Assembly: GCA_902800055.1 (NCBI GenBank)
Contig: CADCCW010000001.1
Span: 14,932 to 78,931, forward strand
DNA from: an uncultured bacterium
GTDB taxonomy: Bacteria > Verrucomicrobiota > Kiritimatiellia > RFP12 > UBA1067
Direction of reading: 5' to 3'
DNA: 64,000 nt
Numbering within the stretch: position 1 is the stretch's first letter; each line of letters begins with the position of its first letter. The notes below the pieces were generated by a model. The model was given only the letters and a program-made list of their open reading frames with translations, ran no database searches and was not told the origin of the DNA. Shown piece after piece: positions 14,502 through 50,120 of this stretch. A program made the translations under genes and the position numbers.

Positions 14502-14508
14502 GGCGTGT

Positions 14509-20252: not shown

Positions 20253-20260
20253 AGAAGCGG

Positions 20261-20352: not shown

Positions 20353-20363
20353 TCGCGCAGACG

Positions 20364-31684: not shown

Positions 31685-32980
31685 TATATTGGTGTAGAAA
31701 TCAACCAGTCTGGCGGCGAGGACAGCCCAGTCGTACTCATGCGCGGCGGCAACCCCGGCAGCGGACATCTCCGCGCGCTCCGCGAAAGCCTTGTCGACCG
31801 CCGCGTCCAGCGCCGCCGCATCGCCGGGTGCGAACACCGCCGCCGCGCCTGGATGCGCCGCGCAGAGCCTCCCGAGCCCGCCCACGTCGCTTGCCGCCAC
31901 CGGCAGCCCCGCCGCCCAGGCCTCGAGGACGACGATGCCGAACGGCTCGTGGCGGCTCGCGAGCACAAAGACGTCGGCGTTCCGGTACTCTGCGAGCAGC
32001 TCGGGGCTGCCCGGCTTCAGCGCGCCGACGAACGCGACGCGATCTGAGACGCCTAGCTCGACGGCGCGGCGCTCGAGCTCCTCGCGGTAGTCGGGCTGGG
32101 TGACAGGGCCAACCAGGCGAAGCGCGCGCCCAGGATGGCGCGACAGATGCTCGACGAGCGCCAGCTGGTTTTTCTGGCGGTCGATCCGCGCGACGCATAG
32201 GAGCGTGGCGGAGCTCCCGGAGTTTCCGGTTTCCCCGGAGTTGCCGGCGAAGAGGCGCGTGTCCACACCATTGGGCAGAAACATCACATGCGGGTGCTTC
32301 GCGCGATAACGCTCGTATTCGTCCTCGCCCACGCAGACGATGCCGTCCGCGTCCTCGGGGATGCGGCGGACCCAGCCCATCGCATAGTCGACGAGCTTTC
32401 CCCACGGCAAACGTCCGCGGGTCGGGGCCTTCAGGCTCTTCGCCTCCGCCGTCGGCACGTTTGCTCCGCCGCCGTGGAGGGAGATAACGGTTTTTGGTTC
32501 GGTAGTTTGGTGGTTGGGTGGTTGGGTGGTTGAGTGGGCAACCCTAAGGCACAGTTCCGCGATGCGCGCCATCGCGTGGCAATGGATGACGTCCGGCTGC
32601 CATTCACGGAGCGCCTTGCCAAGTCCCGGCACAAACGGGTTTCCGCCCTTGCGGTCGAGCTCGGCGACAAGCTGCTTCGGCATCGGCCACCAGGGATAGA
32701 CCGGCCTGAAGCGGAGGATTTCAATACCGTCGACAGTCTCTGCGAATTGTCTGTTTTTCCAACACAAAGAACACAGAGAGCGCAAAGAGCGCAAAGCCCC
32801 CAAAAAGCCCTTTGTGTCCTTTGTGTTCTTTGTGTTAAAATCTTTCCACAGCGCAGTTGTAGCGAAGATGCGCACTTCGTGCCCCGCTTCCTGCTGGGCC
32901 TTGGCGAGGTTCCACACCACCTGCTCGGTGCCGCCCCAGTCGTCGAACGAGAGCCGCCTCAGGACGTGCGCGATTCTCAT
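31679..32980 (-). CDS. Family 4 glycosyltransferase carrying two in-frame repeat-cassette inserts
   Basis: MRIAHVLRRLSFDDWGGTEQVVWNLAKAQQEAGHEV N-terminus. The C-terminal half reads LLCVARIDRQKNQ..., ASRHEPFGIVVLEAWAAGLPVAASDVGG. The inserts NTKNTKDTKGFLGALRSLRSLCSLC and STTQPPNHQTTEPKT interrupt the N-terminal domain. Confidence 0.75.
   Translation of the reverse strand: MRIAHVLRRLSFDDWGGTEQVVWNLAKAQQEAGHEVRIFATTALWKDFNTKNTKDTKGFLGALRSLRSLCSLCWKNRQFAETVDGIEILRFRPVYPWWPMPKQLVAELDRKGGNPFVPGLGKALREWQPDVIHCHAMARIAELCLRVAHSTTQPPNHQTTEPKTVISLHGGGANVPTAEAKSLKAPTRGRLPWGKLVDYAMGWVRRIPEDADGIVCVGEDEYERYRAKHPHVMFLPNGVDTRLFAGNSGETGNSGSSATLLCVARIDRQKNQLALVEHLSRHPGRALRLVGPVTQPDYREELERRAVELGVSDRVAFVGALKPGSPELLAEYRNADVFVLASRHEPFGIVVLEAWAAGLPVAASDVGGLGRLCAAHPGAAAVFAPGDAAALDAAVDKAFAERAEMSAAGVAAAHEYDWAVLAARLVDFYTNIC
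32489..32537. repeat. 8-nt period array (GTTGGGTG-type, about 6 units) in frame inside the GT4 gene
   Basis: ggtttttg gttcggta gtttggtg gttgggtg gttgggtg gttgagtg gg. Translated on the minus strand it gives HSTTQPPNHQTTEPKT. Confidence 0.85.
32761..32836. repeat. 76-nt hairpin-forming cassette built from 9-nt units (CACAAAG / CTTTGTG arms), in frame inside the GT4 gene
   Basis: AACACAAAGAACACA (32761-32775) is the exact reverse complement of TGTGTTCTTTGTGTT (32822-32836). The interior AGCGCAAAG x2 ... CCTTTGTGT continues the imperfect pairing. Translated it gives NTKNTKDTKGFLGALRSLRSLCSLC. Confidence 0.9.
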
Positions 32981-35841
32981 CTTCCCTCCATCGACAACGC
33001 CTCGGCAAGGCTGGCTTTTGTTATCGGCTTGAGGAGAAGGCTGTCAAACCCGATCTCCGCGAACTTCGCCCGGAACTCCACATCCGCCGTGACGACGACA
33101 ACGCGCATGTCTGAAAGCGCGGGATCGGCCCGGATGGCCTTTACGAGCCCCGAACCGTCGAGCCGCGGCATCCACATGTCCGTGAGCACCAGGTCGAACC
33201 GTCCCGCCGCCGGCGACCTGAGGACCTCGAGCGCCTCCTGTCCGTCCCCGGCCGAGACGACCTCGAACTTTCCGAGGTTCTTGAGCTGCGCCTTGAGGAC
33301 CATGATGTTCATCTTCGAATCGTCCACGATCAGGATGCGGCGGGGGGAGCCCGACTCGGACGCCGGATGGACCGGCGCGACATGCGCGGGCATGCCATCG
33401 GCATTCAGCCCTTCGGCCTCGCACGTCTTCACTCCCGGTATCGTTACCGAGAACGTCGAGCCCTTCCCGAGTTCCGATTCGACGTTGAGTCTCCCGCCCA
33501 TCGCCGCGGAAAGCTGCTTGCAGATCGCAAGGCCGAGCCCCGTCCCCCCGTTGCGCGACAGCTTGGAGCCGACCTGGACGTAGGCTGAGCCGATGCGCGC
33601 GAGGTCCTCCTTGCTTATGCCGCATCCAGTGTCCGCCACCTCGATGCGCAGCGTGCCCGACTGCTCGTCCGCCCTCACGAACGACGCGTATATCTCGACA
33701 TAGCCATCGTGGGTGAACTTGACGGCATTGCCGACGAGGTTGAACAACATCTGTCGGATTCGCTGCGGATCGACCATCATCGGGGGCATCTCGTCGACAC
33801 GGCACCGGACTTCGATTCCGGCTTTCCCGCTCGCAACCTTAAAGGCGTCGGTCACCTCGCGCAGCAGCTTCGTGCAGTCAGTCGGCTCCGGCAGTATCTC
33901 CATCTTGCCGGACTCGAGCTTGGAAAGATCCAGGACATCGTTGACGAGCCCGAGGAGAGTCTTGCCGCTGGCGATGATGGCGTCTTCCGCCTGGACGCGC
34001 TCCGCCTCGGTGCTGAAGCCCGACTTCAGCATCTCAGAGAACCCGATTATCGCGTTGAGCGGCGTCCTGATGTCGTGGCTCACGGTCGAGAAGAAATAGC
34101 TCTTGGCCTTCGCCTTCTCCTTCTCCATATCGAGCTCGCGCCGGCGGAAGAGCATGTATACGGCGATCATCAGCACGAGCGCGAGGACGGTAAGGACGCT
34201 CTGCACGTCGCTGTTCCGGATTATCGTCTCGCGGACGACCTGCAGGTCGCGGCGGAGGCGGCCGTGCCAAGACTTCTCGCGGGCGATCCCGACCTCGTCT
34301 TCTGCGCCGGCCCGGCGGAAGACCTCGCCGTGGCTTTCCACGATGCCACAGTACGCCCGGCGCACGGTCTCGCCCGCCGTCTGGCGCGCCCAGACGTGCG
34401 AAAGCGCCACGATCACCAGGAAAAGCGAGACCCACACGACCGAGGAACGCCCGAACCGATGCGATTCGTCCCGGTGGAACGCGAACAGGAAGAACACGAG
34501 TCCCGCGATGCACAACAGCACCAGCGCGAGATACGAAACCGTCCCCATCGAAACCGAAAAGGCGGGAAGGAGGAAAAGTACCGCTATCGCGGCGGAGAAG
34601 AGAAGTCCGACTATCCCGGTGGCCGCAGAGACGCGGTCGCCTTCGCCTTTCGCCAGCTTGAAGGCGGCGGCGGACGTGTAGGCGTACGCCACCGCCGTGC
34701 CGACGAGCGCGACGTCGACTATGATGTCGACCACGGTCAGGCCAAGGGTAGACGATGCGACGGCGACGGCGGCAATGACGAACCCGGCGTTCCTCGCTGA
34801 AAGCGCACCCTTCTCCCTGCCGAGCCAGAGCGGCATCGCCCCGTCGTCCGCCATCGCCGCGAGAAGCCTGCTGGCGACGATAGTGTTCCCCAGGAGATTG
34901 GTGAACAGGGAGCAAAGAAGCGTAATCGCGAGCACCGCCAGTCCCGCTCCGCCGAGGACGCCCTTGACCATGTCGAAGGCGCGGAAGTTCGCGTTGCCAG
35001 ACTGCGAGACCGCGGCGGACCATCCCGCGCCGTCGCCACCCGCCGCCAGAACCGGGATCAGCATGGCCATGACATACGCGGCGACGGACGCGGCGATTGC
35101 CGCCACCATTATCCAGAAGGACCTCCGGACCGGAAACCGGAACTCCGCGGATATGCAGGATATGGATTCGATCCCCACGAAAAGCCAGGGGGAGATCATG
35201 AGTATGCCGAGGATCTGGACAAGGGGCGGGCCGCCGGAGGGGGAGAAGAACGGACGCATCGACGCGAGCCCCCCCTCGTTGCACGCCACTGCGGCTCCGA
35301 AGCAGGCGACCAGCCCCGCAGCCAAGACCAGGGCTGCCGCGATCTGCACCGCCGCCGCGACCCGCCGCCTGGCAATGAGCGCGGCGACGATGCCCATGGC
35401 CACCGTTACCATGGCTATGTCGCCAAGGCAGACCCTGAACCCGGCGACATGGTACTTGAATCCGAAATGAAGCGGATTTCCCCCGAGCAGATAGCGGACG
35501 ATGACGGTAAGCATCTCCGCATCGGCCCAGACTATCGCCGCGTAGGCGAGGCACAGAAACCATCCGCAGATGTATCCGTGGTCGTGCCCGAACGCCTTTT
35601 TCGCGTAGGAATACACCCCGCCGGGACCGGGACACTTCACCATCATGTAATGGAAATTCCACGCGATCACCACCATGGCGAGCGCGGCGACGGCAAGACC
35701 CAGAACCGTTCCGGCTGGACCGGCCTTGGGCAGAAACCCCGTCAAAGGCAGGGAAAGCACGTCCCAGCCCACGGCGCACCCGAACGCAACCGCCCATGCC
35801 CCCAGCGCGGAGAAATGGGCAAGACCACTCCTGTTGTTCAT
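32977..35841 (-). CDS. Hybrid sensor histidine kinase with N-terminal APC-superfamily amino-acid-permease domain (APC-HisKA-HATPase-REC)
   Basis: Residues ~1-480 are a 12-TM permease-like domain. FSALGAWAVAFGCAVGWDVL...AGPAGTVLG...FHYMMVKCPGPGGVYSYAKKAFG matches the APC N-terminal signature. Then the H-box FFSTVSHDIRTPLNAIIGFSEML, N/G boxes FNLVGNAVKF and DTGCGI...GTGLGLAICK, and a receiver ILIVDDS...DLVLTDMWMPRLDG...KP. Confidence 0.85.
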   Translation of the reverse strand: MNNRSGLAHFSALGAWAVAFGCAVGWDVLSLPLTGFLPKAGPAGTVLGLAVAALAMVVIAWNFHYMMVKCPGPGGVYSYAKKAFGHDHGYICGWFLCLAYAAIVWADAEMLTVIVRYLLGGNPLHFGFKYHVAGFRVCLGDIAMVTVAMGIVAALIARRRVAAAVQIAAALVLAAGLVACFGAAVACNEGGLASMRPFFSPSGGPPLVQILGILMISPWLFVGIESISCISAEFRFPVRRSFWIMVAAIAASVAAYVMAMLIPVLAAGGDGAGWSAAVSQSGNANFRAFDMVKGVLGGAGLAVLAITLLCSLFTNLLGNTIVASRLLAAMADDGAMPLWLGREKGALSARNAGFVIAAVAVASSTLGLTVVDIIVDVALVGTAVAYAYTSAAAFKLAKGEGDRVSAATGIVGLLFSAAIAVLFLLPAFSVSMGTVSYLALVLLCIAGLVFFLFAFHRDESHRFGRSSVVWVSLFLVIVALSHVWARQTAGETVRRAYCGIVESHGEVFRRAGAEDEVGIAREKSWHGRLRRDLQVVRETIIRNSDVQSVLTVLALVLMIAVYMLFRRRELDMEKEKAKAKSYFFSTVSHDIRTPLNAIIGFSEMLKSGFSTEAERVQAEDAIIASGKTLLGLVNDVLDLSKLESGKMEILPEPTDCTKLLREVTDAFKVASGKAGIEVRCRVDEMPPMMVDPQRIRQMLFNLVGNAVKFTHDGYVEIYASFVRADEQSGTLRIEVADTGCGISKEDLARIGSAYVQVGSKLSRNGGTGLGLAICKQLSAAMGGRLNVESELGKGSTFSVTIPGVKTCEAEGLNADGMPAHVAPVHPASESGSPRRILIVDDSKMNIMVLKAQLKNLGKFEVVSAGDGQEALEVLRSPAAGRFDLVLTDMWMPRLDGSGLVKAIRADPALSDMRVVVVTADVEFRAKFAEIGFDSLLLKPITKASLAEALSMEGR

Positions 35842-37830
35842 TTACCTGTAGCCTCCTATCAAAGAACGAAACGACAGCCACGAGTATTTCACGAGGCCGT
35901 AGGCGTAGCGACGCCACAGACGGCCAGGCTCCTGGACGATGCGGTACACCCACTCGAGGCCCGTCTTCTGCATCCACTTGGGCGCGCGCTTCACGCGGCC
36001 GGCGAGAAAGTTGAACGTGCCGCCGACGCCAATCATCGCGCCGACGTCAAGCTTCGCCTTGTTGCGGCCCATCCACAGTTCCTGCTTGGGGTTGCCGAGC
36101 GCGACGAAGAGGATGTCTGGCTTCGCGGCGTTGATGCGCTCGACGATCTCGGGCTGTGGCTCGTCCAGCTTCACGAAGGCCGGGTCGATGCCGGCAACTC
36201 TCAACCCGCAACTCTCAACTCCAAACTTCCCGAACGCCTCTTCGACCGCGTCCATGTCGCCGCCCAGCACATACACCGACAACCCCTCCTCCGCGCATCG
36301 GCGCAGAATCGCCGGCACCATGTCCGCCCCGGTGACGCGCTCCGGCAGCGGCTGGCGCAGAATCCGCGAGAGCGCGACGATCGGCATGCCGTCGGCGGTG
36401 ACGAGGTCGGCGTCCTTCAGGTAGCCCCAGAGCTCGTCGTTGCCGCCGAACGGCCAGCCGCTCACGGCGTTGGCGACGAAGTCGACGTTGAGCGTAGCGA
36501 CGACGAATGGGGAACGGGGAACGGGGAACGGGGAATGGTGTTGCCGCGCCATCGCGATGATGCGCTCCACCGCCTCGGACTCGGTCACCTTCGCGACCGG
36601 GATCCCGAAAAGGCGAGAAACGCCTCGCTCCCTCAACAGCTCCACAATCCCCTTCGCATGGTCTTCCCAGGAGAAGCGCTTGATCCACTCGAACCCGCGT
36701 TTTATCCGTGCCTCGCGCTCCGCGGCGAATTCATCGAGGAGCCGCGCAAGCGCCGCGGCGATTTCGTCGACGCTCTCGGGATCGAAGGTGAGCGCGACGT
36801 CCCCCGCGATCTCGCCCAGGGATCCGTTGTTCGAGCAGGCGCACGGGATACCCTGCGCCATTGCCTCAATGAGCGAAAGCCCGAAGCCCTCGAAGAGGCT
36901 GGGGAAGACGTAGAAACCGGCCTCTGACCAGAGCCGCTCCAGTTCCGCGGCGGGGACGAATCCGACAAAGCGGATGAACTCGGCGTGCGGCGAGGCGGCG
37001 GCGGCGGCGTGGACCGCCTCGGCGTCCTTCCAGTCCGCGCCGGCGAGGACGAGCGGATGCGCCGCGGCGGTTTCGCGCGGCAGGCGCGAATACGCCTCGA
37101 TGAGCCGCACGTGGTTCTTGCCCGGATGCTCGATGCGGGAGATGTAGAGGATGGCGGAGGAAGAAGGGATATTAGCGATCGAAGAGGTAGAAGCGATAGC
37201 TCGCTCGCCCTCAACACCCCTTTTATCCTTTTGATCACTTTCATCCCTTCCCCTTGAAAGCCCATTATACAGCACCGTCACCTGGTCCGCGCGGCAGTGC
37301 CAGAACTTCACCATGTCGTCCCTGGTGGCGCCGCTCACCGCGACGAGGTGCCGCGCCTTCTTCGCGTAGTGGGGGAGGACATGCGCGAGGTAGAACATCC
37401 TGAGGCGCGAGTACTTGCCGGGGATGTGGAAATTCGCGAGGTCATGCACCGTCGCCGCCGTCGGCAGCGGGTAGAACGCGCAGACGCGGCGGTTGGCGGC
37501 GCAGATGAAGAAGCCGTCGAAGTCGCCGCGGTGCCGGCGGATCCAGAACGGCAGCACGAAGAGGTGCCAGAGCATCGACAGCGCCGGACGCCGCGTCCAG
37601 CGCGGGGCGGAAATCGATGGTATCTGACATGGGACATCAGACGCGAGACGAGAGGTTTTCCCGCGTCTATCGTCTAGCGTCTCACGCCCAAGACGGAGTT
37701 CTTCTCCCGGTTCGCAAAGGAGCGTCAGTTCGTGGCCCTGCGCCGCGAGCTCGCGCACGACCTCGCGCACGTAGACCGAAATGCCGCTCTTGCCGCCGTC
37801 GTAGGGGACGCATGAGACGAGCAGTCTCAC
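35842..37830 (-). CDS. Bifunctional glycosyltransferase: GT4 domain fused to WecG/TagA/CpsF (GT26) domain; GTG start
   Basis: GTG 37830 forms a GTGA overlap with the upstream kinase stop. The N-terminal half is GT4 (ISRIEHPGKNH..., PSLFEGFGLSLIEAMAQGIPCACSNNGSL). The C-terminal half is GT26 (ATLNVDFVANA..., ADLVTADGMPIV..., ILFVALGNPKQELW..., IGVGGTFNFLAG...RAPKWMQKTGLEWVYRI). Two repeat inserts are present. Confidence 0.8.
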   Translation of the reverse strand: MRLLVSCVPYDGGKSGISVYVREVVRELAAQGHELTLLCEPGEELRLGRETLDDRRGKTSRLASDVPCQIPSISAPRWTRRPALSMLWHLFVLPFWIRRHRGDFDGFFICAANRRVCAFYPLPTAATVHDLANFHIPGKYSRLRMFYLAHVLPHYAKKARHLVAVSGATRDDMVKFWHCRADQVTVLYNGLSRGRDESDQKDKRGVEGERAIASTSSIANIPSSSAILYISRIEHPGKNHVRLIEAYSRLPRETAAAHPLVLAGADWKDAEAVHAAAAASPHAEFIRFVGFVPAAELERLWSEAGFYVFPSLFEGFGLSLIEAMAQGIPCACSNNGSLGEIAGDVALTFDPESVDEIAAALARLLDEFAAEREARIKRGFEWIKRFSWEDHAKGIVELLRERGVSRLFGIPVAKVTESEAVERIIAMARQHHSPFPVPRSPFVVATLNVDFVANAVSGWPFGGNDELWGYLKDADLVTADGMPIVALSRILRQPLPERVTGADMVPAILRRCAEEGLSVYVLGGDMDAVEEAFGKFGVESCGLRVAGIDPAFVKLDEPQPEIVERINAAKPDILFVALGNPKQELWMGRNKAKLDVGAMIGVGGTFNFLAGRVKRAPKWMQKTGLEWVYRIVQEPGRLWRRYAYGLVKYSWLSFRSLIGGYR
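36509..36538. repeat. GGGGAAY heptamer array (GGGGAAC x3, GGGGAAT) in frame at the GT4/GT26 domain junction
   Basis: gaatGGGGAACGGGGAACGGGGAACGGGGAATGGtg on the plus strand. Translated on the minus strand it gives HHSPFPVPRSPFVV. Confidence 0.9.
37158..37254. repeat. AT-richer low-complexity insert ending in a 9-nt period array (CCTTTTATC CTTTTGATC ACTTTCATC CCTTCCCCT) inside the GT4 domain
   Basis: Read directly from the sequence. Translated on the minus strand it gives GRDESDQKDKRGVEGERAIASTSSIANIPSSS, lying between the two Rossmann halves of the GT4 domain. Confidence 0.7.
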
Positions 37831-41021: not shown

Positions 41022-41041
41022 TATTCTTTCTGGCCTAAGTC

Positions 41042-41368: not shown

Positions 41369-41386
41369 TTTTTCTCTCCTTCTTTC

Positions 41387-42343
41387 TTAGTTAAATACCT
41401 GCCAGTCGCGCCTCAGGTCCGGCGTGACGGCCCATTTTGCGCGGATTGCCGCGGCGATGCGCCGCAGCACCCGCACCTCCGGCGGCAGCGCGAAGGTCGA
41501 AAGTTCGCCCAACGTCCGCCGCCGCGCCACCCAGCGCAGCGCGCTGAAGACGCTCCTCGAGGCGTCGGAGAGCGCCGACACCTCGTCGTACGCATCGAGC
41601 CACGCCTCCCGCGCCCGCTCCCAGTTCGCGACCGGCTCGGCCTGCGGGCGGAACTTCCACGCCACCGCGGCGGAATAGAGCCCGTCGCCGAGCCGGTCCG
41701 CTCGCTCGTCCGCCCGCCACGCGTAGCGCCCGCCGGCGATGAGCCGCGCGTCGCCCGCGCCGAGCACGCACTTGTTGAGGTTGCGCGCGACGAACCCCCG
41801 GTCGCTCGACTCGTCCGCGAAGAGCAGCCCCATGCCGCGGTTCATCAGGAGGCGCGCGGCCTCCGTCCACGGCAGTTTCGCCGCGGGAATCTTCTCAATG
41901 GCAGCGAACAGCTCCGCCCCCTTCTTCCCGACGACGTCGAGATAGCCGCGGATCAGCTCCTGCACCATCAGGCGCGACTCGTCGTGCTTGAGCCGCCACG
42001 GCGTCTTCACCGCAAAGTCCACGTCCACGCCCAGCCGCTGCGTCCACTTCTCGGCAATTGGCTTCAATGCCTCGCCAACGGCTGCAATCGTCTCAGCCTC
42101 GGGCACGCCGTCTTCTGTAATCGCAAAGAAATCGAGGTCGTTCGACAGCACCGCCGTTCCCCGTTCCCCGTTCCCCATTCCCCGCTCTATCGCCCCGCCT
42201 TCGCCGCGGCCATAGCCGCCGCCGAGGACGACGCCTGCGAGCCTTGGAACGGCAAGCGCGGCAATCTCGCGCCCGATTTCGGCGCAAGCGTCGTCAATGA
42301 GCCGGTCAAGTTCCGGGCAACTGCCTGCAACATGCCGTCCCAT
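41387..42343 (-). CDS. Nucleotidyltransferase-fold (Pol-beta superfamily) protein with C-terminal helical domain
   Basis: GVVLGGGYGRGEGG...(insert)...LSNDLDFFAIT fits the minimal NTase pattern hG[GS]x9-13Dh[DE]h. The rest is helical and of no family I can name. The GGGGAAY array inserts between the G-rich loop and the DxD. Confidence 0.6.
   Translation of the reverse strand: MGRHVAGSCPELDRLIDDACAEIGREIAALAVPRLAGVVLGGGYGRGEGGAIERGMGNGERGTAVLSNDLDFFAITEDGVPEAETIAAVGEALKPIAEKWTQRLGVDVDFAVKTPWRLKHDESRLMVQELIRGYLDVVGKKGAELFAAIEKIPAAKLPWTEAARLLMNRGMGLLFADESSDRGFVARNLNKCVLGAGDARLIAGGRYAWRADERADRLGDGLYSAAVAWKFRPQAEPVANWERAREAWLDAYDEVSALSDASRSVFSALRWVARRRTLGELSTFALPPEVRVLRRIAAAIRAKWAVTPDLRRDWQVFN
42156..42184. 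repeat. GGGGAAY heptamer array (reverse orientation: GTTCCCC x3, ATTCCCC) in frame inside the NTase-fold gene
   Basis: ccGTTCCCCGTTCCCCGTTCCCCATTCCCCg on the plus strand. The coding (minus) strand therefore carries GGGGAATGGGGAACGGGGAACGGGGAAC, giving ERGMGNGERGT. Confidence 0.9.
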
Positions 42344-42404
42344 CAGATATCTATCCCTTTTTCAGCCATAAATCTGTGTAGTATATCAAAATTCCGTGGT
42401 TTTG

Positions 42405-42704
42405 TCAGAGGCCAACGGTTACGAAGAAGGCGTCGAGGGCCTCGTGCGCGTAGCGGCACGCGCCCGCCGGACCCGGATAGGCCGAGACCATCTTGTGGTA
42501 GTTCCAGCCGATGACGGCCATCGCAAGCACGCCTACGGCCACACCGACGACCGTGCCGAGCGGACCGGCCAGAGGCAGAAACTCCGCGCCGGGCATGACG
42601 AACGCGCCCCAGCCGACGGCGAAGCCGAACGAAAGCCCCCACGCCGAAAGCATCGAAAGATGCTTCCCGGTTCCGCCGGCATTATCCTTGTCGGTTCCGC
42701 TCAT
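42405..42704 (-). pseudogene. Remnant: first ~99 codons of an APC-permease (sensor-kinase-type) gene
   Basis: From Met 42704, MSGTDKDNAGGTGKHLSMLSAWGLSFGFAVGWGAFVMPGAEFLPLAGPLGTVVGVAVGVLAMAVIGWNYHKMVSAYPGPAGACRYAHEAL is collinear with the N-terminus of the APC-kinase at 32977..35841 (FSALGAWAVAFGCAVGWDVLSLPLTGFLPKAGPAGTVLGLAVAALAMVVIAWNFHYMMVKCPGPGGVYSYAKKAF). It stops after about two TM helices. Confidence 0.6.
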
Positions 42705-42714
42705 CGTCCCATGC

Positions 42715-44580
42715 CTATCGCAGGGTGTTGGAAAACACCTCCACCAGCCTGTCATAGGTGAGCGGCTTCAGCAAAATGCCGGTGAAGAACCGGTTCCTGG
42801 CGTCGCGCCTGAACTCGGCGTCTGCCGTCACCGCATAGACCTGAAGCCGCCGGAAGCGTGCGTCGCCGCGAATCTTCTCGACGAGCTCGATGCCGTTCAC
42901 GTTCGGCATCCAGAGGTCGGCGAAGACGAAGTCGTACGCATCTCCCTCCTTCAGCGCGGCGCCGAGCTTCGCGAGCGCCTCGCCGCCGTCGCACGCCTGG
43001 CTGATCGAGGTGACGCCGGCGTGCACGAGCAGAGATGTCAGCACATCGCGGTTGACCGGCGAGTCGTCCACCACCAGCACGCGCCTCGGCAGCCGCTTCG
43101 GCGGGGCCGGCGGCTTAAGCCCGCCTGACGCGTTCATAGCGCGGACGACGCCGGGGATGCGTACGATGAACCTCGAACCGCGCCCGAGTTCGCTCTCGAC
43201 GGAAAGCTCGCCGCCCATCGCATCCACCAAACGGCGGCAGATGGAAAGCCCCAGCCCGGTGCCGCCGGAGCGGTCGGCGGAGTGACTCGGGTCCTGCGCC
43301 TGGACGAACGGGTCGAAGATGCGCGAGATCATGTCGGGCGCGATGCCGCAGCCTGTGTCGGCAACGGAGACCTCAAGGTCCTCGCCGGACACTGACGCGG
43401 AGACCGTCACCGAGCCCTTCTCGATGAACTTGACCGCGTTGCCGACCAGGTTGAATAGAATCTGGCGGAAGCGATGGCCGTCCAGAAGCGCCGTCGGCAC
43501 GCCGACCGTGCGGTTGACGAGCTCGACCCCCTTGTCCGCCGCGGTCTTGCGGAAGGAGGAGAACGCCTCGTCCGTCAGCTGCGAGATCAGCACCGGCCCC
43601 GGATTGAGCGTGAGCTCGCCGGCGTCGATCTTGGAGAGATCGAGGACGTCGTTCACGAGCTGGAGCAGGGTGGTGCCGCTGGAGCGGATGGCCTTCAGCG
43701 CCTCCTCCCTGTCGACCTCGCCCTCGCTGCCGAGCTGGAGCAGCTCGGAATAGCCGAGAATCGCGTTGAGCGGGGTGCGGATATCGTGGCTCACGATGCT
43801 GAAGAACATGCTCCGCGCCTTCTCGGCCGCGCGGGCGCGGTCGATCGCCTTCTCGAGCTCCACCGCGTGCTTCGCCGCCTGTTCGCGCTCGATGACGGCG
43901 CGGCGCAGTTCGTCGCGCTCCTCCTCGATGACGAAGACGTGGAGGAAGCAGTTGCCGACGAGGCAGCCGAGCGCGTAGTACGGCCAGAGCGGCCAGACGA
44001 TCTGGAAGACGATCGCGACCGCCATCGTGAGACAGAAGAGAAACACCATCAGGCTGCGGCGGCGCATCGAGTTGTGGTTGCCGAAGGACTTCACCAGCAC
44101 GAAGACGGCCATTACGACGTTCAGCGCCGCCAGCAGGAAGAAAATCCGGTTGCGGAGCGGAGTGGGCATGTAGTTGCCGGCCGCGTCGAAGCTGAAAAGA
44201 CAGCCGTTGAAGCTGTTGGCCAGCAGCAGCGCGATGAAGAGGGACAGGATCGCGTAGCCAAACCACGAGACCATCCGCGACGCCCACTTGCTGATGTCCA
44301 GGTAGGCCGCGGCGAAATGGCACCACAGGAGGACGGTCACCGCGATGGCGACAAAGAAGAGCACGGTGTCGACGTAGACGGCCTTCGTCCAGCCGAGCCC
44401 GGAGAACACCCCCCAGGCGGCGTCCGCAAGGTAGAAGACGAATATGCCCACCAGGTAGCCGCGGTACTCGCGCAGGCCGTGCGCGGACGCGTCGACCCGC
44501 CCGACGAGCAGATTGAAGTTGGTGATCAGGTGGATCACCATCGCCAAAAAGGCGATCACCGAGTATATGTAGTCTTGCAT
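42715..44580 (-). CDS. Hybrid sensor histidine kinase with polytopic (about 6-7 TM) membrane sensor domain
   Basis: N-terminal 230 aa are multi-TM (MQDYIYSVIAFLAMVIHLITNFNLL...). Then a coiled coil, the H-box FFSIVSHDIRTPLNAILGYSELL, LVGNAVKF, DTGCGI, GTGLGLSICRRL, and a receiver VLVVDDSPVNR...FVFADLWMPNVNG...KP. Confidence 0.85.
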   Translation of the reverse strand: MQDYIYSVIAFLAMVIHLITNFNLLVGRVDASAHGLREYRGYLVGIFVFYLADAAWGVFSGLGWTKAVYVDTVLFFVAIAVTVLLWCHFAAAYLDISKWASRMVSWFGYAILSLFIALLLANSFNGCLFSFDAAGNYMPTPLRNRIFFLLAALNVVMAVFVLVKSFGNHNSMRRRSLMVFLFCLTMAVAIVFQIVWPLWPYYALGCLVGNCFLHVFVIEEERDELRRAVIEREQAAKHAVELEKAIDRARAAEKARSMFFSIVSHDIRTPLNAILGYSELLQLGSEGEVDREEALKAIRSSGTTLLQLVNDVLDLSKIDAGELTLNPGPVLISQLTDEAFSSFRKTAADKGVELVNRTVGVPTALLDGHRFRQILFNLVGNAVKFIEKGSVTVSASVSGEDLEVSVADTGCGIAPDMISRIFDPFVQAQDPSHSADRSGGTGLGLSICRRLVDAMGGELSVESELGRGSRFIVRIPGVVRAMNASGGLKPPAPPKRLPRRVLVVDDSPVNRDVLTSLLVHAGVTSISQACDGGEALAKLGAALKEGDAYDFVFADLWMPNVNGIELVEKIRGDARFRRLQVYAVTADAEFRRDARNRFFTGILLKPLTYDRLVEVFSNTLR

Positions 44581-44587
44581 GGCTTAT

Positions 44588-46423
44588 TTACCGTTGGTTG
44601 AACACCCCCGCAAGCTTGCCGTAGGTGAGCGGCTTGAGGAGAATGTCGTTGAAGAGACTGGATCTGCAATCCTTGTGGAATTCGGTGTCGGCCGTCACCG
44701 CGAAGATCGGCAGCCGCGCGAAGCGGGGGTCGGCGCGCAGCCTCTCGACGAGCTCGAGGCCGTTCATGTTCGGCATCCAGAAGTCTGAGAAGACGAAGTC
44801 GTGGGGATCGCCCGCCCGGACCGCCGCGTCCATCTTCGCGAGCGCCTCCGCCCCGTCGCCAGCCTGGTCGATGCGGACGACCCCCGCCTTCTTGAGGAAA
44901 GCCGTCAGCACCATGCGGTTGACCGGCGAGTCGTCGACCACCAGCACATGCTTCGGCAGCCCTTCCGGCATGATTGTACCGGAGACCTCCGCGCCGGAAG
45001 GCTCCGCCTTTGCCTCGCAGATCTCGACGCCGGGAATGCGAATGGTGAACTTAGATCCACGCCCGGGCTCGCTTTCGACGCTGATCTCGCCGCCCATCGT
45101 CTCCGCCAGCCGGCGGCAGATGGAAAGCCCCAGCCCGGTGCCGTTGGCGCGGTCGGCCGCGTGGCTCGGGTCCAGCACCTGAACGAACGGTTCAAGGATA
45201 TGCGACAGCATGTCGGGCGCGATGCCGCAGCCAGTGTCGGCGACGGAGACGACAAGCGTCTTTTCGGCATACGAGGCGGCAACCGTCACCGACCCGCTCC
45301 CGGTGAACTTCACGGCGTTGCCGATCAGGTTGAAGAGGATCTGGCGGAAGCGGTGGCCGTCGACCATCACCGTCGGCACGCCGTCGGTGCGGTTGACGAG
45401 CTCCACCCCCTTCGCGGACGCGTCGCGCCAGAAGGACGAGAACACCTCGTCGACAAGCTGGTTCATGAGCACCGGCTCTGAGCGGAGCGTCATCATCCCG
45501 GCATCCATCCTGGCGAGGTCGAGGACGTCGTCGACGAGCTGCAGCAGCGTGACACCGCTGGCGCGGATGGACTTCAGGGCCTCGTTCCGCTCGGATTCGT
45601 CCTTGGCACCCCTCTGGAGCAGTTCGGAATAGCCTATTATCGCGTTGAGCGGCGTCCTGATGTCGTGGCTGACGATGCTGAAGAACATGCTCCGCGCCTT
45701 CTCCGCCGCACGGGCGCACTCGAGCGCCTTCTCGAGCTCCGCCGCGTACTTCGCCGACCGCTCGTCCTGGATCACGAACACCTGGAAGAAGCAGTTGACG
45801 ACGAGGCACCCGAGCGACGTGAACGGCGTGAGCGGCCAGGCCACCTGCATGATCATGGACACCGACATGGTGATGCCGCACAAAAGCACCATCGCGCCCC
45901 GGCGGCGGTCGAAATCCCGGCTACGGATCGTCTTCACGGCCACGAACAGCGACGTGAGCATCCCGAAGGAGACCATCATGTAAAACGCCGGATCGCGCAG
46001 CCAGCCGGTCTGGTAGACGCCCTGGTCGTCAAAGTAGAAGAGGCACCGGGTGAACGGATTGGCCGCCATCGCAACGAGGTTGAACGCCAGAAGAGCGCAC
46101 CCGCACCAGTCGAGGAAGCGCCGGGACGCCCTGCCGAACGAGAGATAGTCCGCGGCGAACCGGCACCACAGGAACACGAACGCAACCAGCGACAGGAAGA
46201 AGAACAGCGTGTCTATGTACCACGGCACCATCCAGCGGAGCCCGGCGAACGCTCCCCAGGCCGCATCGGTCGTATAGTAGGCGAGCACCCCGAACAGGAA
46301 CCAGCGGTAGCGCACAACGTGCGCGAGGTGGAGCCCGTGGCGGCCGGCCAGCAGGTCGAAGTTGAGGATCAGGTGGATTACGATCGCGGCGGCGGAAAAA
46401 ATCGAATATGCGTAGCCCTGCAT
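44588..46423 (-). CDS. Hybrid sensor histidine kinase, tandem paralogue of 42715..44580
   Basis: Collinear over its full length with the neighbouring kinase (MQGYAYSIFSAAAIVIHLILNFDLL..., FFSIVSHDIRTPLNAIIGYSELL, DTGCGIAPDM, VLVVDDSPVNR, FVFSDFWMPNMNG). Confidence 0.85.
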   Translation of the reverse strand: MQGYAYSIFSAAAIVIHLILNFDLLAGRHGLHLAHVVRYRWFLFGVLAYYTTDAAWGAFAGLRWMVPWYIDTLFFFLSLVAFVFLWCRFAADYLSFGRASRRFLDWCGCALLAFNLVAMAANPFTRCLFYFDDQGVYQTGWLRDPAFYMMVSFGMLTSLFVAVKTIRSRDFDRRRGAMVLLCGITMSVSMIMQVAWPLTPFTSLGCLVVNCFFQVFVIQDERSAKYAAELEKALECARAAEKARSMFFSIVSHDIRTPLNAIIGYSELLQRGAKDESERNEALKSIRASGVTLLQLVDDVLDLARMDAGMMTLRSEPVLMNQLVDEVFSSFWRDASAKGVELVNRTDGVPTVMVDGHRFRQILFNLIGNAVKFTGSGSVTVAASYAEKTLVVSVADTGCGIAPDMLSHILEPFVQVLDPSHAADRANGTGLGLSICRRLAETMGGEISVESEPGRGSKFTIRIPGVEICEAKAEPSGAEVSGTIMPEGLPKHVLVVDDSPVNRMVLTAFLKKAGVVRIDQAGDGAEALAKMDAAVRAGDPHDFVFSDFWMPNMNGLELVERLRADPRFARLPIFAVTADTEFHKDCRSSLFNDILLKPLTYGKLAGVFNQR

Positions 46424-46483
46424 TCCTCACCTCCCCCTTTTCGCGATGTCCGCCGCCGCGCCTGAAGAATGCCACTTCATGAC

Positions 46484-47413
46484 CTACCCCCTTCGGCCGT
46501 ACGACCTTCCTCGCAGAAACCGCCACATCGACCGCACCCATCCCAGCCCGGTCGGGATGCGGCGGGCGAGGCCCGGCTCTTCGAAGTCCACCCAGGTGCC
46601 GGTGCCGGCGTCGATGACGCGCCGCCCGACCACTATCTTGCCGATTAACTCCAGCCCCGCGCCGATGAACGTGTCGCGGCAGACGACGGTGCGGCGGAGC
46701 CGCGCGCCCTCGCTGATGTACGAGCCGCTGTCGACGATCACCTCGCCCTCGAGCTGCACGTTCCGGGCGAACCAGGTGTTGTCCTGCAGAAGCACCGGCG
46801 GCTTCACCTCCGTCCCGTGCTCGATGACGACGCTCCGCCCGATGTGGACGTCGCGCTCGGACGAATACCCCGGCACCGTGAACTCCTCGGGATGGCTGAG
46901 GACGACGAAGTTCAGCTCGTGCCACGCCTTGACGTTCCTGACCACGAGGCCGTGGGGAACGAGGCGCATCCAGCGGCCGCCACTGCGACGGTAGATTCCA
47001 GCCGGGGTCTCGACGCATTCCGCCTCGGAAACCGGCTCCATCGACATCTCCTCCTCCGCGTGCATCGACAGCGCAATCCCCCAGACCACGACGAGGTCGT
47101 CCGCGATGTTGGCGGTGAGCGGGCTCGAATATCCCTCTATGCCGGCAAGGCCCTTCGGCAACTCGCCCTCGCCCCTCAAATAGAAGATCGGCGCGCCCGT
47201 CCGGGTCATATCGGCGAAGTCGTCGGCAAGCCGCTGGGAGAAGCGCCAGTCCAGGATCTCGGTGAACATCGCGCCGAACTTCTGCGCCCGCTCGATGGCG
47301 TAGTCGATGACGCGCCGCCCGGCGACCGGCAGCTCCGCCGGGCTGGTGCCGGGAAGGAGCTCGTCCACCCATTCGGTCTCGCGTGTCGCGGGGATGAAGA
47401 CGACGTTGACCAT
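46484..47413 (-). CDS. Sugar-nucleotidyltransferase-like N-domain plus left-handed beta-helix (hexapeptide) C-domain protein
   Basis: The real start is MVNVVFIPATRE at 47413. ELPVAGRRVIDYAIE resembles the NTP_transferase LPV-x-G-x-P-hI-hh pattern, but the G-x-G-x-R box is missing. The C-terminal half has hexapeptide-like repeats (HIGRSVVIEHGTEV..., VQLEGEVIVDSGSYISEGARL...). Confidence 0.55.
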   Translation of the reverse strand: MVNVVFIPATRETEWVDELLPGTSPAELPVAGRRVIDYAIERAQKFGAMFTEILDWRFSQRLADDFADMTRTGAPIFYLRGEGELPKGLAGIEGYSSPLTANIADDLVVVWGIALSMHAEEEMSMEPVSEAECVETPAGIYRRSGGRWMRLVPHGLVVRNVKAWHELNFVVLSHPEEFTVPGYSSERDVHIGRSVVIEHGTEVKPPVLLQDNTWFARNVQLEGEVIVDSGSYISEGARLRRTVVCRDTFIGAGLELIGKIVVGRRVIDAGTGTWVDFEEPGLARRIPTGLGWVRSMWRFLRGRSYGRRG

Positions 47414-47415
47414 AT

Positions 47416-48132
47416 TCAGTACGCCCCCTTCCCGCCGATGATCGCGGGGATCGTCTTCATGAGGATCGCGACGTCCTTCCAGAACCCGCCCGCCATGATG
47501 TACTCCTTGTCGAGCCGCACCTGCTCGTGGAACGGGATCTCGCTCCTGCCCTTGATCTGCCAGAGGCAGGTGATGCCGGGGATCACGTCCAGCCGCTTGC
47601 GGTCCTCGAGCGTGTACTGCGCCACCTCGGAAGGCACCGGCGGACGCGGCCCCACCAGGCTCATGTCGCCGATGAACACGTTCCAGAGCTGCGGCAGCTC
47701 GTCGAGGCTCGTGCGACGCAGGAACCGCCCCACCCTGGTGATGCGCGGATCGTCCTTCATCTTGAAGATCACGCCGTCCTTCGACTCGTTCTGCGCCATC
47801 AGCGCCGCCTTGCACGCCTCGGCGTCTGTCCGCATGCTGCGGAACTTCCAGAAGCGGAAGTGGCGCCCGTAGCGCCCGACGCGCGTCTGGCTGAAGAACA
47901 CCGGCCCCGGGCTCGAGAGCTTCACCGCAGCCGCGATCCCCAGGAAGACCGGCGAGAGGACGAGCATGCCGACGCCGCTGCCGACGATGTCGATGAACCG
48001 CTTCGTCGCGTACGAGAGCAGCACCGTGAAGCGCCACGCCATCAGCCGCAGGCTCCGCCGCCTCACGCCGCGTGTGCGCGCGGCGAGCTCGTGGACGAGT
48101 TCGTCCAGCTCCTCTGGCTTCGCCTCCGCCAT
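47416..48132 (-). CDS. Undecaprenyl-phosphate hexose-1-phosphate transferase (bacterial sugar transferase, initiating enzyme)
   Basis: KRFIDIVGSGVGMLVLSPVFLGIAAAVKLSSPGPVFFSQTRVGRYGRHFRFWKFRSM...DPRITRVGRFLRRTSLDELPQLWNVFIGDMSLVGPRP is the classic Bac_transf (WbaP/EpsL C-terminal) signature. Confidence 0.9.
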   Translation of the reverse strand: MAEAKPEELDELVHELAARTRGVRRRSLRLMAWRFTVLLSYATKRFIDIVGSGVGMLVLSPVFLGIAAAVKLSSPGPVFFSQTRVGRYGRHFRFWKFRSMRTDAEACKAALMAQNESKDGVIFKMKDDPRITRVGRFLRRTSLDELPQLWNVFIGDMSLVGPRPPVPSEVAQYTLEDRKRLDVIPGITCLWQIKGRSEIPFHEQVRLDKEYIMAGGFWKDVAILMKTIPAIIGGKGAY

Positions 48133-48441
48133 TTAGAGCGCCGCCGTCAGATCCTTCAGCCGCGCGATCAGCCGGCCCGACTCGCCGGCGTCGTGGAGCT
48201 TCGCCGCCTGGCGGAGCGCAATCCCCGCCTCCGCCGTCTCGCTGTCGCCAGCCGCCAGGGCATTGCCCTTCACCGTGTGCGCGATCTTGTCCAACGCATC
48301 CCAATCGCCGGCCGCGAGCGCGGCCTCGGCCTCGCCGGTCTTCGCCTTCGCGGACGAAGCGTACTCGGCGTAGATTTCGTTGATGATGTCGGCGTCCCCG
48401 CCGAATTGCTCGTTAAGGTATGTGGCGCAGCATTCCTTCAT
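48133..48441 (-). CDS. Histidine phosphotransfer (Hpt) protein, HptB-like
   Basis: The real start is MKECCATYL at 48441, in an ATGA overlap with the upstream gene stop. It is 102 aa and all-helical, with the H-x-x-K-G motif in IAHTVKGNALAAG. Confidence 0.75.
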   Translation of the reverse strand: MKECCATYLNEQFGGDADIINEIYAEYASSAKAKTGEAEAALAAGDWDALDKIAHTVKGNALAAGDSETAEAGIALRQAAKLHDAGESGRLIARLKDLTAAL

Positions 48442-50120
48442 TTGACTTCCCCCTTGAAGTTGGTTTGCCCCCCGACCGCCTCCAGGTTCAGGGGGATGTG
48501 GTAGATGGTCTCGTTCAACTTGCCATAGCGGTTGCGTTCGATGCCGTCGCAGAGCTCGCGCACCATCATCCGCCCGCGCCCGCGCCCGCTCATCTCGCGG
48601 TTGGCGAGCTCGAAGCCGGTGTCGGTCGAGCCCGCGGCGACCGCGAGGCTCGGCTCGGGCGAGCCGCAGTCCCACACCGTCAGCTCCGCCGTCTTGTTCA
48701 CCAGCCGGAGCCGGATGCTCACCACCTCGTGCAGTCGCTCGCGGTCGGTGAGGCCGTGGTCGTGGATGTTCATCAGCTTCTCCTCGAGGACGAGCTGGAT
48801 GCGGTCGACGAGCGACTGGTCCCAGCCCTCGCCGGCGCACCAGGCCGCCATCGCCTGCGCCATCTGGTCCACCTCCGCCGGCGAGACCGGCGAGGTCGCC
48901 TCGAAGACGCCGGGCAGGTTCGCGCGCTTGCCGAAGACGAGGATGGTCACGTCGTCGTGCAGGGTGCCGTAGCCAATCTCCGCCGCCGCGCGCATGAACT
49001 TGTAGGGCTCGACCATGATCGAGCCGTCCGCGCGGCCATCGGTGATGAGCTCGTTGCGCAGCTTGGCCACCATCGCCGCCGGCATCTGCTCCATGCCCTC
49101 CGTGTCGCGCGACATGTCGAGGAGCCCGTCGGTGTAGGCCACCACCACCGAGTCGTCGAAGAGCGGAGTCGTCACCACGTCCTTCTCGGAGTACACCGTG
49201 TCGGCCATCAGCCCGATCGGCAGCCCGCCGCGCTTCTCGGGATTGACCTCGCACACCACGCCGTCGGACACCACCACCGGGTCCGGCGCGCCGCAGTTGA
49301 GCCAGACGACGTCGTTCCGAAGCGGACGGTGCAGGCAGAGGAGCGCGGTCATGTAGGAGACCTCCGCCAGGTTGTTCCGGAAGAAGCGCTGCAGGCGGTT
49401 CGCGATGTCGTAGATCTGCACCGAGCTCTGCAGCTTGCGGTTGGAGAGCTGCTTGATGAACGTCTGCACCGCCGTCATCGCGAGCGCCGCGCTGGTGCCG
49501 TGGCCCTGGATGTCGCCGAGCAGGTAGAGGTAGCACCCCTCGCCGAACGGCATCGCCTCGTAGAGGTCGCCGCTGACCATGTCCTTCGCCTTCCAGAACG
49601 CCGTGTAGAAGCCGCGCTCCGTCATCATCGCGCGCACCGGCAGCATGCTGCTCTGGATCTGGGCTGCGAGCGCCATCGACTGCCTCTGCTCCTCGATCTG
49701 CCGCTCGATGAACTGCTCGATCCTGCGCGAGGCGATGGTGCGCTGCACACGCTGGAGGAGGACGTCGGTGTCGACCGACTTCGGCAGGTAGTAGCTCAGC
49801 GGCTCGGAGACGATCTTCTTCAGGAACCCGCTCCCCTCCTCCGGATCGAGCGCCGTCAGGAAGAAGATCGGCATCGACCGGTCGATGCCGCGCACGATGT
49901 CGCGGAACACGAAGCCGTCCATCTCGCCCATCACGATGTCGGAGATGATTGCGCCGAAGTGCTTGTGCTCCTTCTTCAGGATCGCCACCGCCTCCTCCAC
50001 CGTCCCGACCGCGACAGGGTCGTACCCCACGCGCTTGAGGCGCGCGCTCATCGTAAGCCGAATCAGCTTCTCGTCGTCGACCACGAGAATCTTCGGCATT
50101 GTTTCCACATGCCCAGCCAT
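48438..50120 (-). CDS. Response regulator-PP2C(SpoIIE) phosphatase-GHKL anti-sigma-type Ser kinase tri-domain switch protein (HsbR/RsbU-RsbW-like)
   Basis: Receiver: KILVVDDEKLIR...AIISDIVMGEMDG...LPKS. PP2C/SpoIIE: QIQSSMLP..., SGDLYEA..., LLGDIQGHGTSAAL..., AYTDGLLD..., HDDVTILVF. C-terminal GHKL-like region: EEKLMNIHDHG..., LTVWDCGSPEP..., GRGRGRMMVREL. Confidence 0.8.
   Translation of the reverse strand: MAGHVETMPKILVVDDEKLIRLTMSARLKRVGYDPVAVGTVEEAVAILKKEHKHFGAIISDIVMGEMDGFVFRDIVRGIDRSMPIFFLTALDPEEGSGFLKKIVSEPLSYYLPKSVDTDVLLQRVQRTIASRRIEQFIERQIEEQRQSMALAAQIQSSMLPVRAMMTERGFYTAFWKAKDMVSGDLYEAMPFGEGCYLYLLGDIQGHGTSAALAMTAVQTFIKQLSNRKLQSSVQIYDIANRLQRFFRNNLAEVSYMTALLCLHRPLRNDVVWLNCGAPDPVVVSDGVVCEVNPEKRGGLPIGLMADTVYSEKDVVTTPLFDDSVVVAYTDGLLDMSRDTEGMEQMPAAMVAKLRNELITDGRADGSIMVEPYKFMRAAAEIGYGTLHDDVTILVFGKRANLPGVFEATSPVSPAEVDQMAQAMAAWCAGEGWDQSLVDRIQLVLEEKLMNIHDHGLTDRERLHEVVSIRLRLVNKTAELTVWDCGSPEPSLAVAAGSTDTGFELANREMSGRGRGRMMVRELCDGIERNRYGKLNETIYHIPLNLEAVGGQTNFKGEVK

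Follow-up and report, generated by a model that had tools for sequence, protein, structure and literature searches.

The partner-switching regulator HsbR of Pseudomonas aeruginosa has the domain order REC-PP2C-kinase. It has both kinase and phosphatase activities, and phosphorylated HptB turns it from the first to the second (PMC5085249). The outputs of this HptB-HsbR-HsbA pathway are FlgM, the diguanylate cyclase HsbD and RpoS (PMC5085249, PMC6482189). In Vibrio fischeri the STAS protein SypA is encoded within a polysaccharide locus and, when unphosphorylated, promotes biofilm formation through an unknown target other than its regulator SypE (PMC4517449, PMC10120452). In the cyanobacterial systems HenR/All4160 of Anabaena and XssP of Synechocystis, a REC-PP2C phosphatase sets the phosphorylation of a STAS domain, which controls an initiating Bac_transf enzyme of a polysaccharide pathway (PMC13555669). 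Here we analyse a 64-kb stretch of DNA (the window) from a rumen Kiritimatiellia genome, in which a densely packed string of minus-strand genes, running from 50120 down to 22632, interleaves signalling genes related to these systems with genes of a Wzx/Wzy-type polysaccharide pathway.

We propose, with a probability of roughly 0.6, that this is a Wzx/Wzy-type exopolysaccharide locus carrying its own regulatory circuit, in which hybrid kinases would act on a free Hpt protein, the Hpt protein on a kinase/phosphatase switch protein, and the switch on a STAS protein that would control polysaccharide assembly post-translationally. Signalling domains were identified by Pfam profile searches, which recovered all of those assigned to the listed open reading frames (ORFs) in a preliminary description of this DNA. 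The genes on which the argument turns are the following.

48438..50120, minus strand: switch protein, 560 aa; REC, PP2C (SpoIIE) and RsbW-type GHKL Ser kinase domains in an HsbR-like order
48133..48441, minus strand: stand-alone Hpt phosphotransfer protein, 102 aa (Pfam Hpt)
47416..48132, minus strand: small initiating polyprenyl-phosphate sugar-phosphate transferase (Bac_transf; Pfam E 1.6e-66)
46484..47413, minus strand: left-handed beta-helix (LbH, hexapeptide) protein, 309 aa (Hexapep and LbH_EIF2B matches)
41387..42343, minus strand: Pol-beta-type nucleotidyltransferase with a helical C-terminal domain, 318 aa, uncharacterised (AlphaFold2 model and Foldseek)
41042..41368, minus strand: single-domain STAS protein, 108 aa (Pfam STAS, 77 bits)

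The switch protein matches Response_reg at residues 11-126 (E 1.8e-13), SpoIIE/PP2C at 194-396 (E 1.1e-27) and HATPase_c_2 at 412-534 (E 1.6e-13), which bears out the REC-PP2C-GHKL architecture first described for it and places the C-terminal domain in the GHKL kinase family. Across 26 orthologues there is no variation in the receiver residues D15, D16, D61, T89 and K114, in the PP2C metal-binding motifs SGD185, GD203, DG332 and DD390, or in the GHKL residues E447/N451 of the N-box, H455-G456, D484-x-G486 and G514-R-G516 of the G-rich segment. Profile matches in the PDB are to RssB (3eq2; REC-PP2C) and to Rv1364c (3ke6; PP2C and kinase).

The Hpt assignment likewise stands: the protein scores 29.4 bits against a Pfam gathering cut-off of 24.6, and the motif H55-x-x-K58-G59-N60 is invariant in 24 orthologues. 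The top solved-structure match of its family profile, at an E value of 1.6e-3, is 7c1i, the structure of P. aeruginosa HptB (PMC7467158). In the STAS protein the motif H-I-D-S54-S55-G-L-G, which contains the DSSGL site recognised earlier, is invariant in 19/19 aligned sequences, and NCBIfam classes the protein as an anti-sigma factor antagonist (64.7 bits). This protein is unusually conserved, with 70-84% identity among orthologues in loci laid out as in the window (Type A, below) versus 50-62% for the switch protein. From alignment with the site of Ser58 in Bacillus subtilis SpoIIAA, the predicted phospho-acceptor is S54.

The genes of the string are packed as tightly as the preliminary description had indicated. 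Taken in gene order, the junctions are -4, 0, +2, 60 and 7 nt and, further down the string, 18, 20, -4, 0, -4, 32, -4, 4, -8, 15 and -1 nt; most are overlaps or near zero, with a few gaps of 7-61 nt. The switch, Hpt and transferase genes abut or overlap, the Hpt start codon overlapping the switch stop codon by 4 nt (ATGA). The string begins at 50120, because the DinG-like helicase gene upstream (50276-52360, plus strand) is divergent from it. A terminator scan of the region found no convincing internal terminator, the terminator-like matches falling within genes, and a promoter scan gave four promoter-like sites versus 1.7 expected, with no enrichment across the region. We infer that the signalling and polysaccharide genes would be carried on one transcript. 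Rfam and tRNA scans of the window gave no matches. Two ORFs of the string, at 41387-42343 (the 318-aa protein) and 42405-42755 (a permease fragment), were not listed in the preliminary description. The LbH gene boundaries are corrected here to 46484-47413, and the start of the GT4-GT26 gene to a GTG codon at 37830.

The embedding of the signalling genes in a polysaccharide locus is shared by related genomes, as synteny over about 40 non-redundant loci shows. The switch protein of the window is 98-99% identical to those of the rumen genome bins RUG11534 and RUG10963, and the relatives come from ruminant gut samples and carry the labels Kiritimatiellae, Verrucomicrobia or Lentisphaerae. We mapped genes by tblastn over 61 loci found through the switch protein and retrieved 80 further loci independently from metagenome contigs with a profile built from remote homologues of the 318-aa protein; all loci were then annotated with profiles (L-numbers below are labels of related loci). 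The recurring order in the 61 loci is switch, Hpt, initiating transferase, LbH, [318-aa protein], STAS, a kinase with a solute-binding-protein (SBP) module, a glycosyltransferase of family GT4 or GT4-GT26, and then a permease kinase or a GT4 protein. The same order is seen in loci retrieved through the nucleotidyltransferase.

Genes were counted in the 40 non-redundant loci whose sequence reaches 5.5 kb or more upstream of the gene for the 318-aa protein. The switch, the initiating transferase and the LbH protein are each present in 37/40, the Hpt protein in 35/40, the STAS protein in 33/40 (27 immediately downstream) and a hybrid kinase in 27/40. The module has therefore been stably linked to the gene for the initiating enzyme since an early date. 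The cluster head, comprising the switch, Hpt, transferase, LbH and nucleotidyltransferase genes, is retained in loci with as little as 30% switch identity and on contigs of 46-50% GC. Type A loci have the layout of the window itself. In Type B loci, at about 30% switch identity and 46-50% GC, the cluster head leads directly into a gene for a polysaccharide co-polymerase (PCP)-like protein, Wza, Wzy, a 316-aa unknown protein and GH9; there is no kinase in the cluster, and the STAS gene lies either divergently upstream with glycosyltransferase genes or downstream.

This conservation bears on the idea that the signalling genes form a general lifestyle regulator that neighbours the polysaccharide genes and does not control them. 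The effects of the homologous Pseudomonas operon, which lies in a flagellar region, are pleiotropic (PMC5085249), and a third kind of related locus (Type C, L053-L059) carries the module without polysaccharide genes. In the window, however, the two classes of gene are interleaved and overlap in their start and stop codons, and the adjacency of the switch and Hpt genes to the initiating transferase is kept to 30% identity across differing GC contents. We regard mere neighbourhood as highly improbable.

Compared with HptB-HsbR-HsbA (PA3345-PA3347), the locus has the same set of parts: several hybrid kinases lacking an Hpt domain, a free Hpt protein, a regulator combining PP2C and Ser kinase domains, and a single-domain STAS protein with a phospho-serine site. 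The domain logic of that pathway, invoked in the preliminary description, fits wherever sequence can speak to it. The Pseudomonas genes, however, lie in a flagellar region and their sensors at distant loci, whereas here the module heads a polysaccharide operon and the sensors are encoded in cis; the FlgM, HsbD and RpoS outputs are not linked here, and the similarity seen in profile searches is at the domain level (Hpt E 1.6e-3), with no NCBIfam equivalog reaching its cut-off.

The syp locus provides a likeness of a different kind. Its initiating enzyme, SypR, is a Bac_transf protein, its hybrid kinase SypF carries its own Hpt domain, and SypG is sigma-54-dependent. Both loci hold a Ser kinase/phosphatase regulator and its known or, here, predicted STAS substrate together with a Bac_transf enzyme. 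SypE, however, has the order kinase-REC-PP2C (PMC10120452) where the switch protein here is REC-PP2C-kinase. The syp locus also has a hybrid kinase, SypF, and a DNA-binding syp activator, SypG (PMC4517449), whereas Pfam searches found neither a DNA-binding domain (Sigma54_activat or other) nor an Hpt-bearing kinase in the string, so that a SypG/SypF-type arm is missing. Conversely, syp has no free Hpt protein, no permease or SBP kinase and no LbH and nucleotidyltransferase pair.

In the cyanobacterial systems transferase and STAS domain form one covalent fusion, with kinases as separate proteins, whereas here the STAS protein is free, kinase and phosphatase form one polypeptide and several kinases would feed in through an Hpt protein. 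The All4160 fusion nevertheless ties STAS, by domain fusion, to the class of enzyme that is encoded here by the second gene after the switch. Canonical RsbU/V/W or SpoIIAA/AB modules have a cognate sigma factor with the module, which is found neither in the window nor in the conserved flanks.

Judged by its predicted parts, then, the locus would work like HptB-HsbR-HsbA and is placed like SypE-SypA, yet misses defining features of each. We found no description of this system in the literature on Kiritimatiellae polysaccharides or on partner switching with Hpt and polysaccharide. New here are a predicted relay with a free Hpt protein and several sensors, encoded in cis with a polysaccharide operon of the Planctomycetes-Verrucomicrobia-Chlamydiae (PVC) group, and an invariant, uncharacterised LbH and nucleotidyltransferase pair. 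Since a STAS protein and kinase/phosphatase switch in a polysaccharide locus are already known from syp (PMC4517449, PMC10120452), the preliminary description, which does not mention syp, overstated the novelty of the arrangement. The architecture recombines known parts, and its value is therefore that of a clean comparative test case rather than of a new principle.

By analogy with HptB-HsbR-HsbA and SypE-SypA, the hybrid kinases would pass phosphoryl groups through their own receivers to the Hpt protein and from there to the switch. Phosphorylation of the switch receiver would flip the protein from kinase to phosphatase mode, as HsbR does, and the mode of the switch would set the phosphorylation state of STAS Ser54. 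In the last and weakest step, unphosphorylated STAS would act post-transcriptionally on the assembly machinery and not on a sigma factor. Candidate targets are the co-located products, namely the initiating transferase and the LbH and nucleotidyltransferase pair.

Three points favour a post-translational output: sigma, anti-sigma and GGDEF genes are absent from the window and the conserved flanks, the module is tightly linked to the initiating transferase, and cyanobacteria fuse STAS to Bac_transf under the control of a REC-PP2C phosphatase (PMC13555669). Profile scans of the window and of the conserved loci returned no sigma, anti-sigma or GGDEF gene, and no FlgM, GGDEF or sigma-70-family domain was found in any window ORF scanned. 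This agrees with the earlier remark that no sigma or anti-sigma partner is visible in the window; a partial rpoN, some 40 kb distant, is the sole sigma gene.

The main rival is a canonical partner switch, in which the locus would be controlled transcriptionally, a sigma or anti-sigma factor from elsewhere in the genome being sequestered by the GHKL domain of the switch or by the STAS protein. HATPase_c_2, the family matched by the switch kinase domain, is the RsbW/SpoIIAB anti-sigma family, and the NCBIfam placement of the STAS protein as an anti-sigma factor antagonist points the same way. So do the control of FlgM and RpoS availability by HsbR-HsbA (PMC5085249, PMC6482189) and the loci L053-L059, which hold the module without polysaccharide genes. 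Against this, neither the 64-kb window nor any conserved flank has a sigma-70-family or anti-sigma gene, a transcriptional output does not need so tight and ancient a linkage to the initiating transferase, and SypA and All4160 are precedents for outputs that do not involve a sigma factor. On balance we consider a sigma-factor target unlikely, although it is the alternative to be taken most seriously.

Several observations weigh against post-translational control of assembly by this circuit. Systems of this architecture in Pseudomonas and Shewanella work through FlgM or RpoS. The switch kinase has a G1 box of the form D-x-G-x-P and not D-x-G-x-G. The Type C loci, labelled Lentisphaeria or Victivallales, consist of switch and Hpt genes, usually a divergent STAS gene and a convergent hybrid kinase gene, with no polysaccharide genes within 10 kb, which shows that the module can serve other outputs and also stand as a signalling unit on its own. 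A fusion of STAS to the transferase occurs in 0 of 146 loci examined. Finally, a mirror-tree test for STAS partners over 27 loci, which supports coupling of STAS with the switch and Hpt proteins (partial r 0.31 for each), gives no signal for the initiating transferase (-0.17), the LbH protein (-0.07) or the nucleotidyltransferase (0.02); this test is crude and confounded by recombination blocks and non-independent pairs, and we therefore give it little weight.

What is targeted by STAS proteins whose action does not involve sigma factors, such as SypA, BtrV and HmpV, is a long-standing gap. Because the head genes travel together, the STAS gene is usually near and no sigma gene is seen, the candidate targets here are narrowed to a handful of proteins, in a cluster shared by dozens of genomes of Kiritimatiellia and relatives from rumen and gut.

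The inputs to the proposed relay are hybrid kinases (HKs) encoded further down the string.

44588..46423, minus strand: HK1, multi-pass membrane N terminus followed by HisKA-HATPase_c-REC; accessory (Pfam; six hydrophobic segments)
42715..44580, minus strand: HK2, paralogue of HK1; accessory (Pfam)
42405..42755, minus strand: permease-hybrid-kinase remnant, ORF of 116 aa, overlapping the HK2 3' end by 41 nt
37827..41021, minus strand: HK3, signal peptide, periplasmic region of about 630 aa with SBP_bac_3, one transmembrane segment, HisKA-HATPase_c-REC (Pfam)
32977..35841, minus strand: HK4, APC-family amino-acid permease domain (about 12 transmembrane segments) followed by HisKA-HATPase_c-REC (Pfam)

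All four kinases carry HisKA, HATPase_c and Response_reg domains and, as the preliminary description had it, none has an Hpt domain of its own: no Hpt match was found in them at E<=0.01, and each ends 5-8 residues past its receiver, which leaves no room for one. Of the three sensor types proposed to converge on the relay, two are upheld by profile matches, the permease of HK4 (AA_permease_2, E 6.6e-16; 12 hydrophobic segments) and the SBP module of HK3 (SBP_bac_3, 34 bits; transmembrane segments at 5-23 and 655-673). The third, a 7TM-like sensor in HK1 and HK2, amounts to a faint HisKA_7TM match (E 0.039); these two proteins are 56% identical and each has a block of six hydrophobic segments.

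The count of four kinases needs a similar qualification, in that all four are present but HK1 and HK2 belong to a segment that the closest relatives lack. A stretch of 4.25 kb (42241-46497), containing HK1, HK2 and the remnant ORF, is absent in L005, L006 and L014. At the same site L036 and L040 have the order LbH, permease kinase, HK1, HK2, permease kinase, and L036 has a full permease kinase where the window has the 116-aa remnant. About 75 residues of a permease N terminus are recognisable in the remnant, which is 53% identical to residues 9-83 of HK4. Comparison with these loci indicates that the segment is an accessory insertion that left a permease-kinase fragment behind. Since close relatives lack it, the set of four kinases is a strain-level state. 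The LbH gene beside the insertion encodes a protein with 58% identity to that of the closest genomes, versus 97-100% for the flanking switch and transferase, and the locus is therefore a recombination mosaic.

Two further features mark this site. The remnant at 42405-42755 resembles the deletion scar of a larger kinase cassette. A candidate internal promoter on the minus strand (42380-42408; CTGACA-17-TATACT, with TG ahead of the -10 element) sits where the insertion has left a gap of 61 nt, a short way upstream of the genes for the 318-aa protein and the STAS protein.

HK3 is the conserved sensor of the cluster and directly follows the STAS gene in most window-type loci. From the comparative gene order, the predicted conserved sensors are this SBP kinase and often also the permease kinase. 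Transporter-sensor fusions of the HK4 type recur in many related loci and are duplicated in some. The presence of permease-fused and solute-binding kinases suggests that uncultured rumen glycan degraders may couple nutrient sensing to the production of a surface polymer.

The LbH and nucleotidyltransferase pair was treated separately as a possible site of action. The 318-aa protein has no significant Pfam, NCBIfam, PDB-sequence or PADLOC match, Pfam NTP_transf_2 reaching just E 0.046, and since the sequence searches were empty it was placed by predicted structure alone. Its AlphaFold2 model (pLDDT 92.5, pTM 0.88) has a Pol-beta nucleotidyltransferase core and a helical domain. The best Foldseek matches are HalB (9dbh), ANT(9) (6xz0), AadA and KNTase, at E values of about 1e-4 and TM scores of 0.42-0.58, with a probability of 1.0 for ANT and HalB. 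The protein belongs to a family of 1144 cluster representatives. Its motifs GGGYxRGEGG, N-D69-L-D71 and D107-V-D109 are invariant, with the catalytic Asp motifs intact; the Pol-beta signature G-[GS]-x(9-13)-D-x-[DE], the third acidic residue and the nucleotidyltransferase fold are all present. The protein therefore shares with the aminoglycoside nucleotidyltransferases ANT(9), AadA and KNTase and with HalB of the Hailong system a Pol-beta core, a helical C-terminal domain and the motifs G-G/S...D-x-D plus a third Asp, but differs from them in its 10-17% identity, modest TM scores, lack of a significant profile match and wholly different genomic context.

A role in defence, prompted by the HalB fold match and by Pfam GT4-conflict matches, was rejected: there were no PADLOC matches, canonical GT4 models score higher than the conflict models, and the surrounding genes make up a full set for export and polymerisation.

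For the LbH protein, NCBIfam gives weak matches to the LbH portions of GlmU, NeuD and mannose-1-P guanylyltransferase. The N-terminal half, labelled an NTP-transferase in the preliminary description, resembles a degenerate NDP-sugar pyrophosphorylase fold, with no Pfam match. The AlphaFold2 model of this protein was unusable (pLDDT 44.9), its input alignment consisting of sequences 73-100% identical.

One alternative makes this pair the real output, or an extra layer of control, with the STAS protein or the switch kinase regulating a nucleotidyl transfer that gates assembly. Such a transfer could AMPylate a protein (the transferase or STAS, for instance), produce a small nucleotide signal or nucleotidylate a sugar intermediate. 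The intact catalytic Asp motifs and the fold, like that of ANT, MNT and HalB proteins, are consistent with activity, and the nucleotidyltransferase belongs to the conserved cluster head. It is fused to an LbH homologue in five distant representatives, which sit in the same Hpt and transferase context. The loci L034, L044 and L048 have lost the transferase and LbH genes, and the cluster is cut down in them to switch, Hpt and nucleotidyltransferase genes (with STAS in some) amid unrelated, non-polysaccharide genes, so that the link of the 318-aa protein to the signalling genes is no looser than its link to biosynthesis. However, the fold matches are modest, STAS shows no co-evolution signal with the nucleotidyltransferase (partial r 0.02), no nucleotidyltransferase gene lies near the module in L053-L059, the LbH structure is without a usable model, and the pair may be plainly biosynthetic, for example in precursor activation or polymer decoration. 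We think it improbable that the pair is the true output.

A more specific form of post-translational control, which we put forward tentatively, is that the STAS protein and the switch gate polysaccharide initiation directly and without a sigma factor, the LbH and nucleotidyltransferase pair being the effector arm. The STAS protein or the kinase could, for example, control nucleotidyl transfer onto the initiating transferase or another product of the locus. Were this so, the loci compared here would reveal what class of target SypA-like 'orphan' STAS proteins have.

The remaining genes of the string encode polysaccharide functions.

35842..37830, minus strand: GT4 and GT26 (WecG/TagA) fusion glycosyltransferase (Pfam); the GTG start at 37830 overlaps the HK3 stop (GTGA)
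31679..32980, minus strand: GT4 glycosyltransferase (Pfam); start overlaps the HK4 stop (ATGA)
29676-31646, minus strand: PCP-like coiled-coil protein (transmembrane topology)
28621-29679, minus strand: Wza (Poly_export/SLBB; Pfam)
27279-28616, minus strand: Wzy (Wzy_C; Pfam)
25145-27286, minus strand: GH9 (Pfam)
23582-25129, minus strand: Wzx (Polysacc_synt; Pfam)
22632-23582, minus strand: 316-aa protein without a family match (Pfam, NCBIfam and PDB sequences searched)

Together with the initiating transferase, these complete a Wzx/Wzy pathway set of flippase, polymerase and outer-membrane export protein. The initiating transferase has a single hydrophobic segment (residues 54-72), is 70-84% identical in orthologous loci and scores 293 bits with NCBIfam EPS_sugtrans, slightly below the 295.55-bit cut-off. 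Most of the biosynthetic labels in the preliminary description are sound (Bac_transf, LbH, GT4-GT26, GT4, wza, wzy, GH9 and wzx). Three lack support: searches of Pfam (at E up to 5), NCBIfam and PDB sequences gave nothing significant in favour of the labels wzc (29676-31646), GT8 (22632-23582) and, for one half of the LbH protein, NTP-transferase.

The 29676-31646 product has two transmembrane segments on either side of a coiled coil, a co-polymerase-like topology, and has no Wzz or AAA_31 match. BY-kinase motifs are absent, its C-terminal cytoplasmic domain having neither a GK[ST] Walker A motif nor a Tyr-rich tail. The protein may be related to Wzc but degenerate or not a kinase; a gene of this type stays beside Wza in distant loci.

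Beyond 22632 the polysaccharide locus probably extends into 16734-22597. This region holds convergent GT2 and GT4 genes (20343-22597, plus strand), an FGE-sulfatase-family gene (19419-20252), a nitroreductase-family gene (17882-19108) and a polysaccharide pyruvyl transferase gene (16734-17885). Tyrosine-recombinase genes past this distal end, at 12800-13705 (minus strand) and 14425-15909 (plus strand, with a SHOCT tail), may mark the boundary of a mobile element or island.

Elsewhere in the window, a 433-aa ORF without a Pfam match (3286-4587, minus strand) lies between rnfD and rnfC of an Rnf operon and has a GC content of 59-60% versus 65-70% elsewhere. It and a second 433-aa ORF (6431-7732) were considered as repeated transposases, which was rejected because the two are unrelated. 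A gene at 54228-57728 (minus strand), also unrelated to the findings above, encodes a protein of 1166 aa with GH38 C-terminal domains and an aldose-1-epimerase domain and adjoins a U32 peptidase gene.

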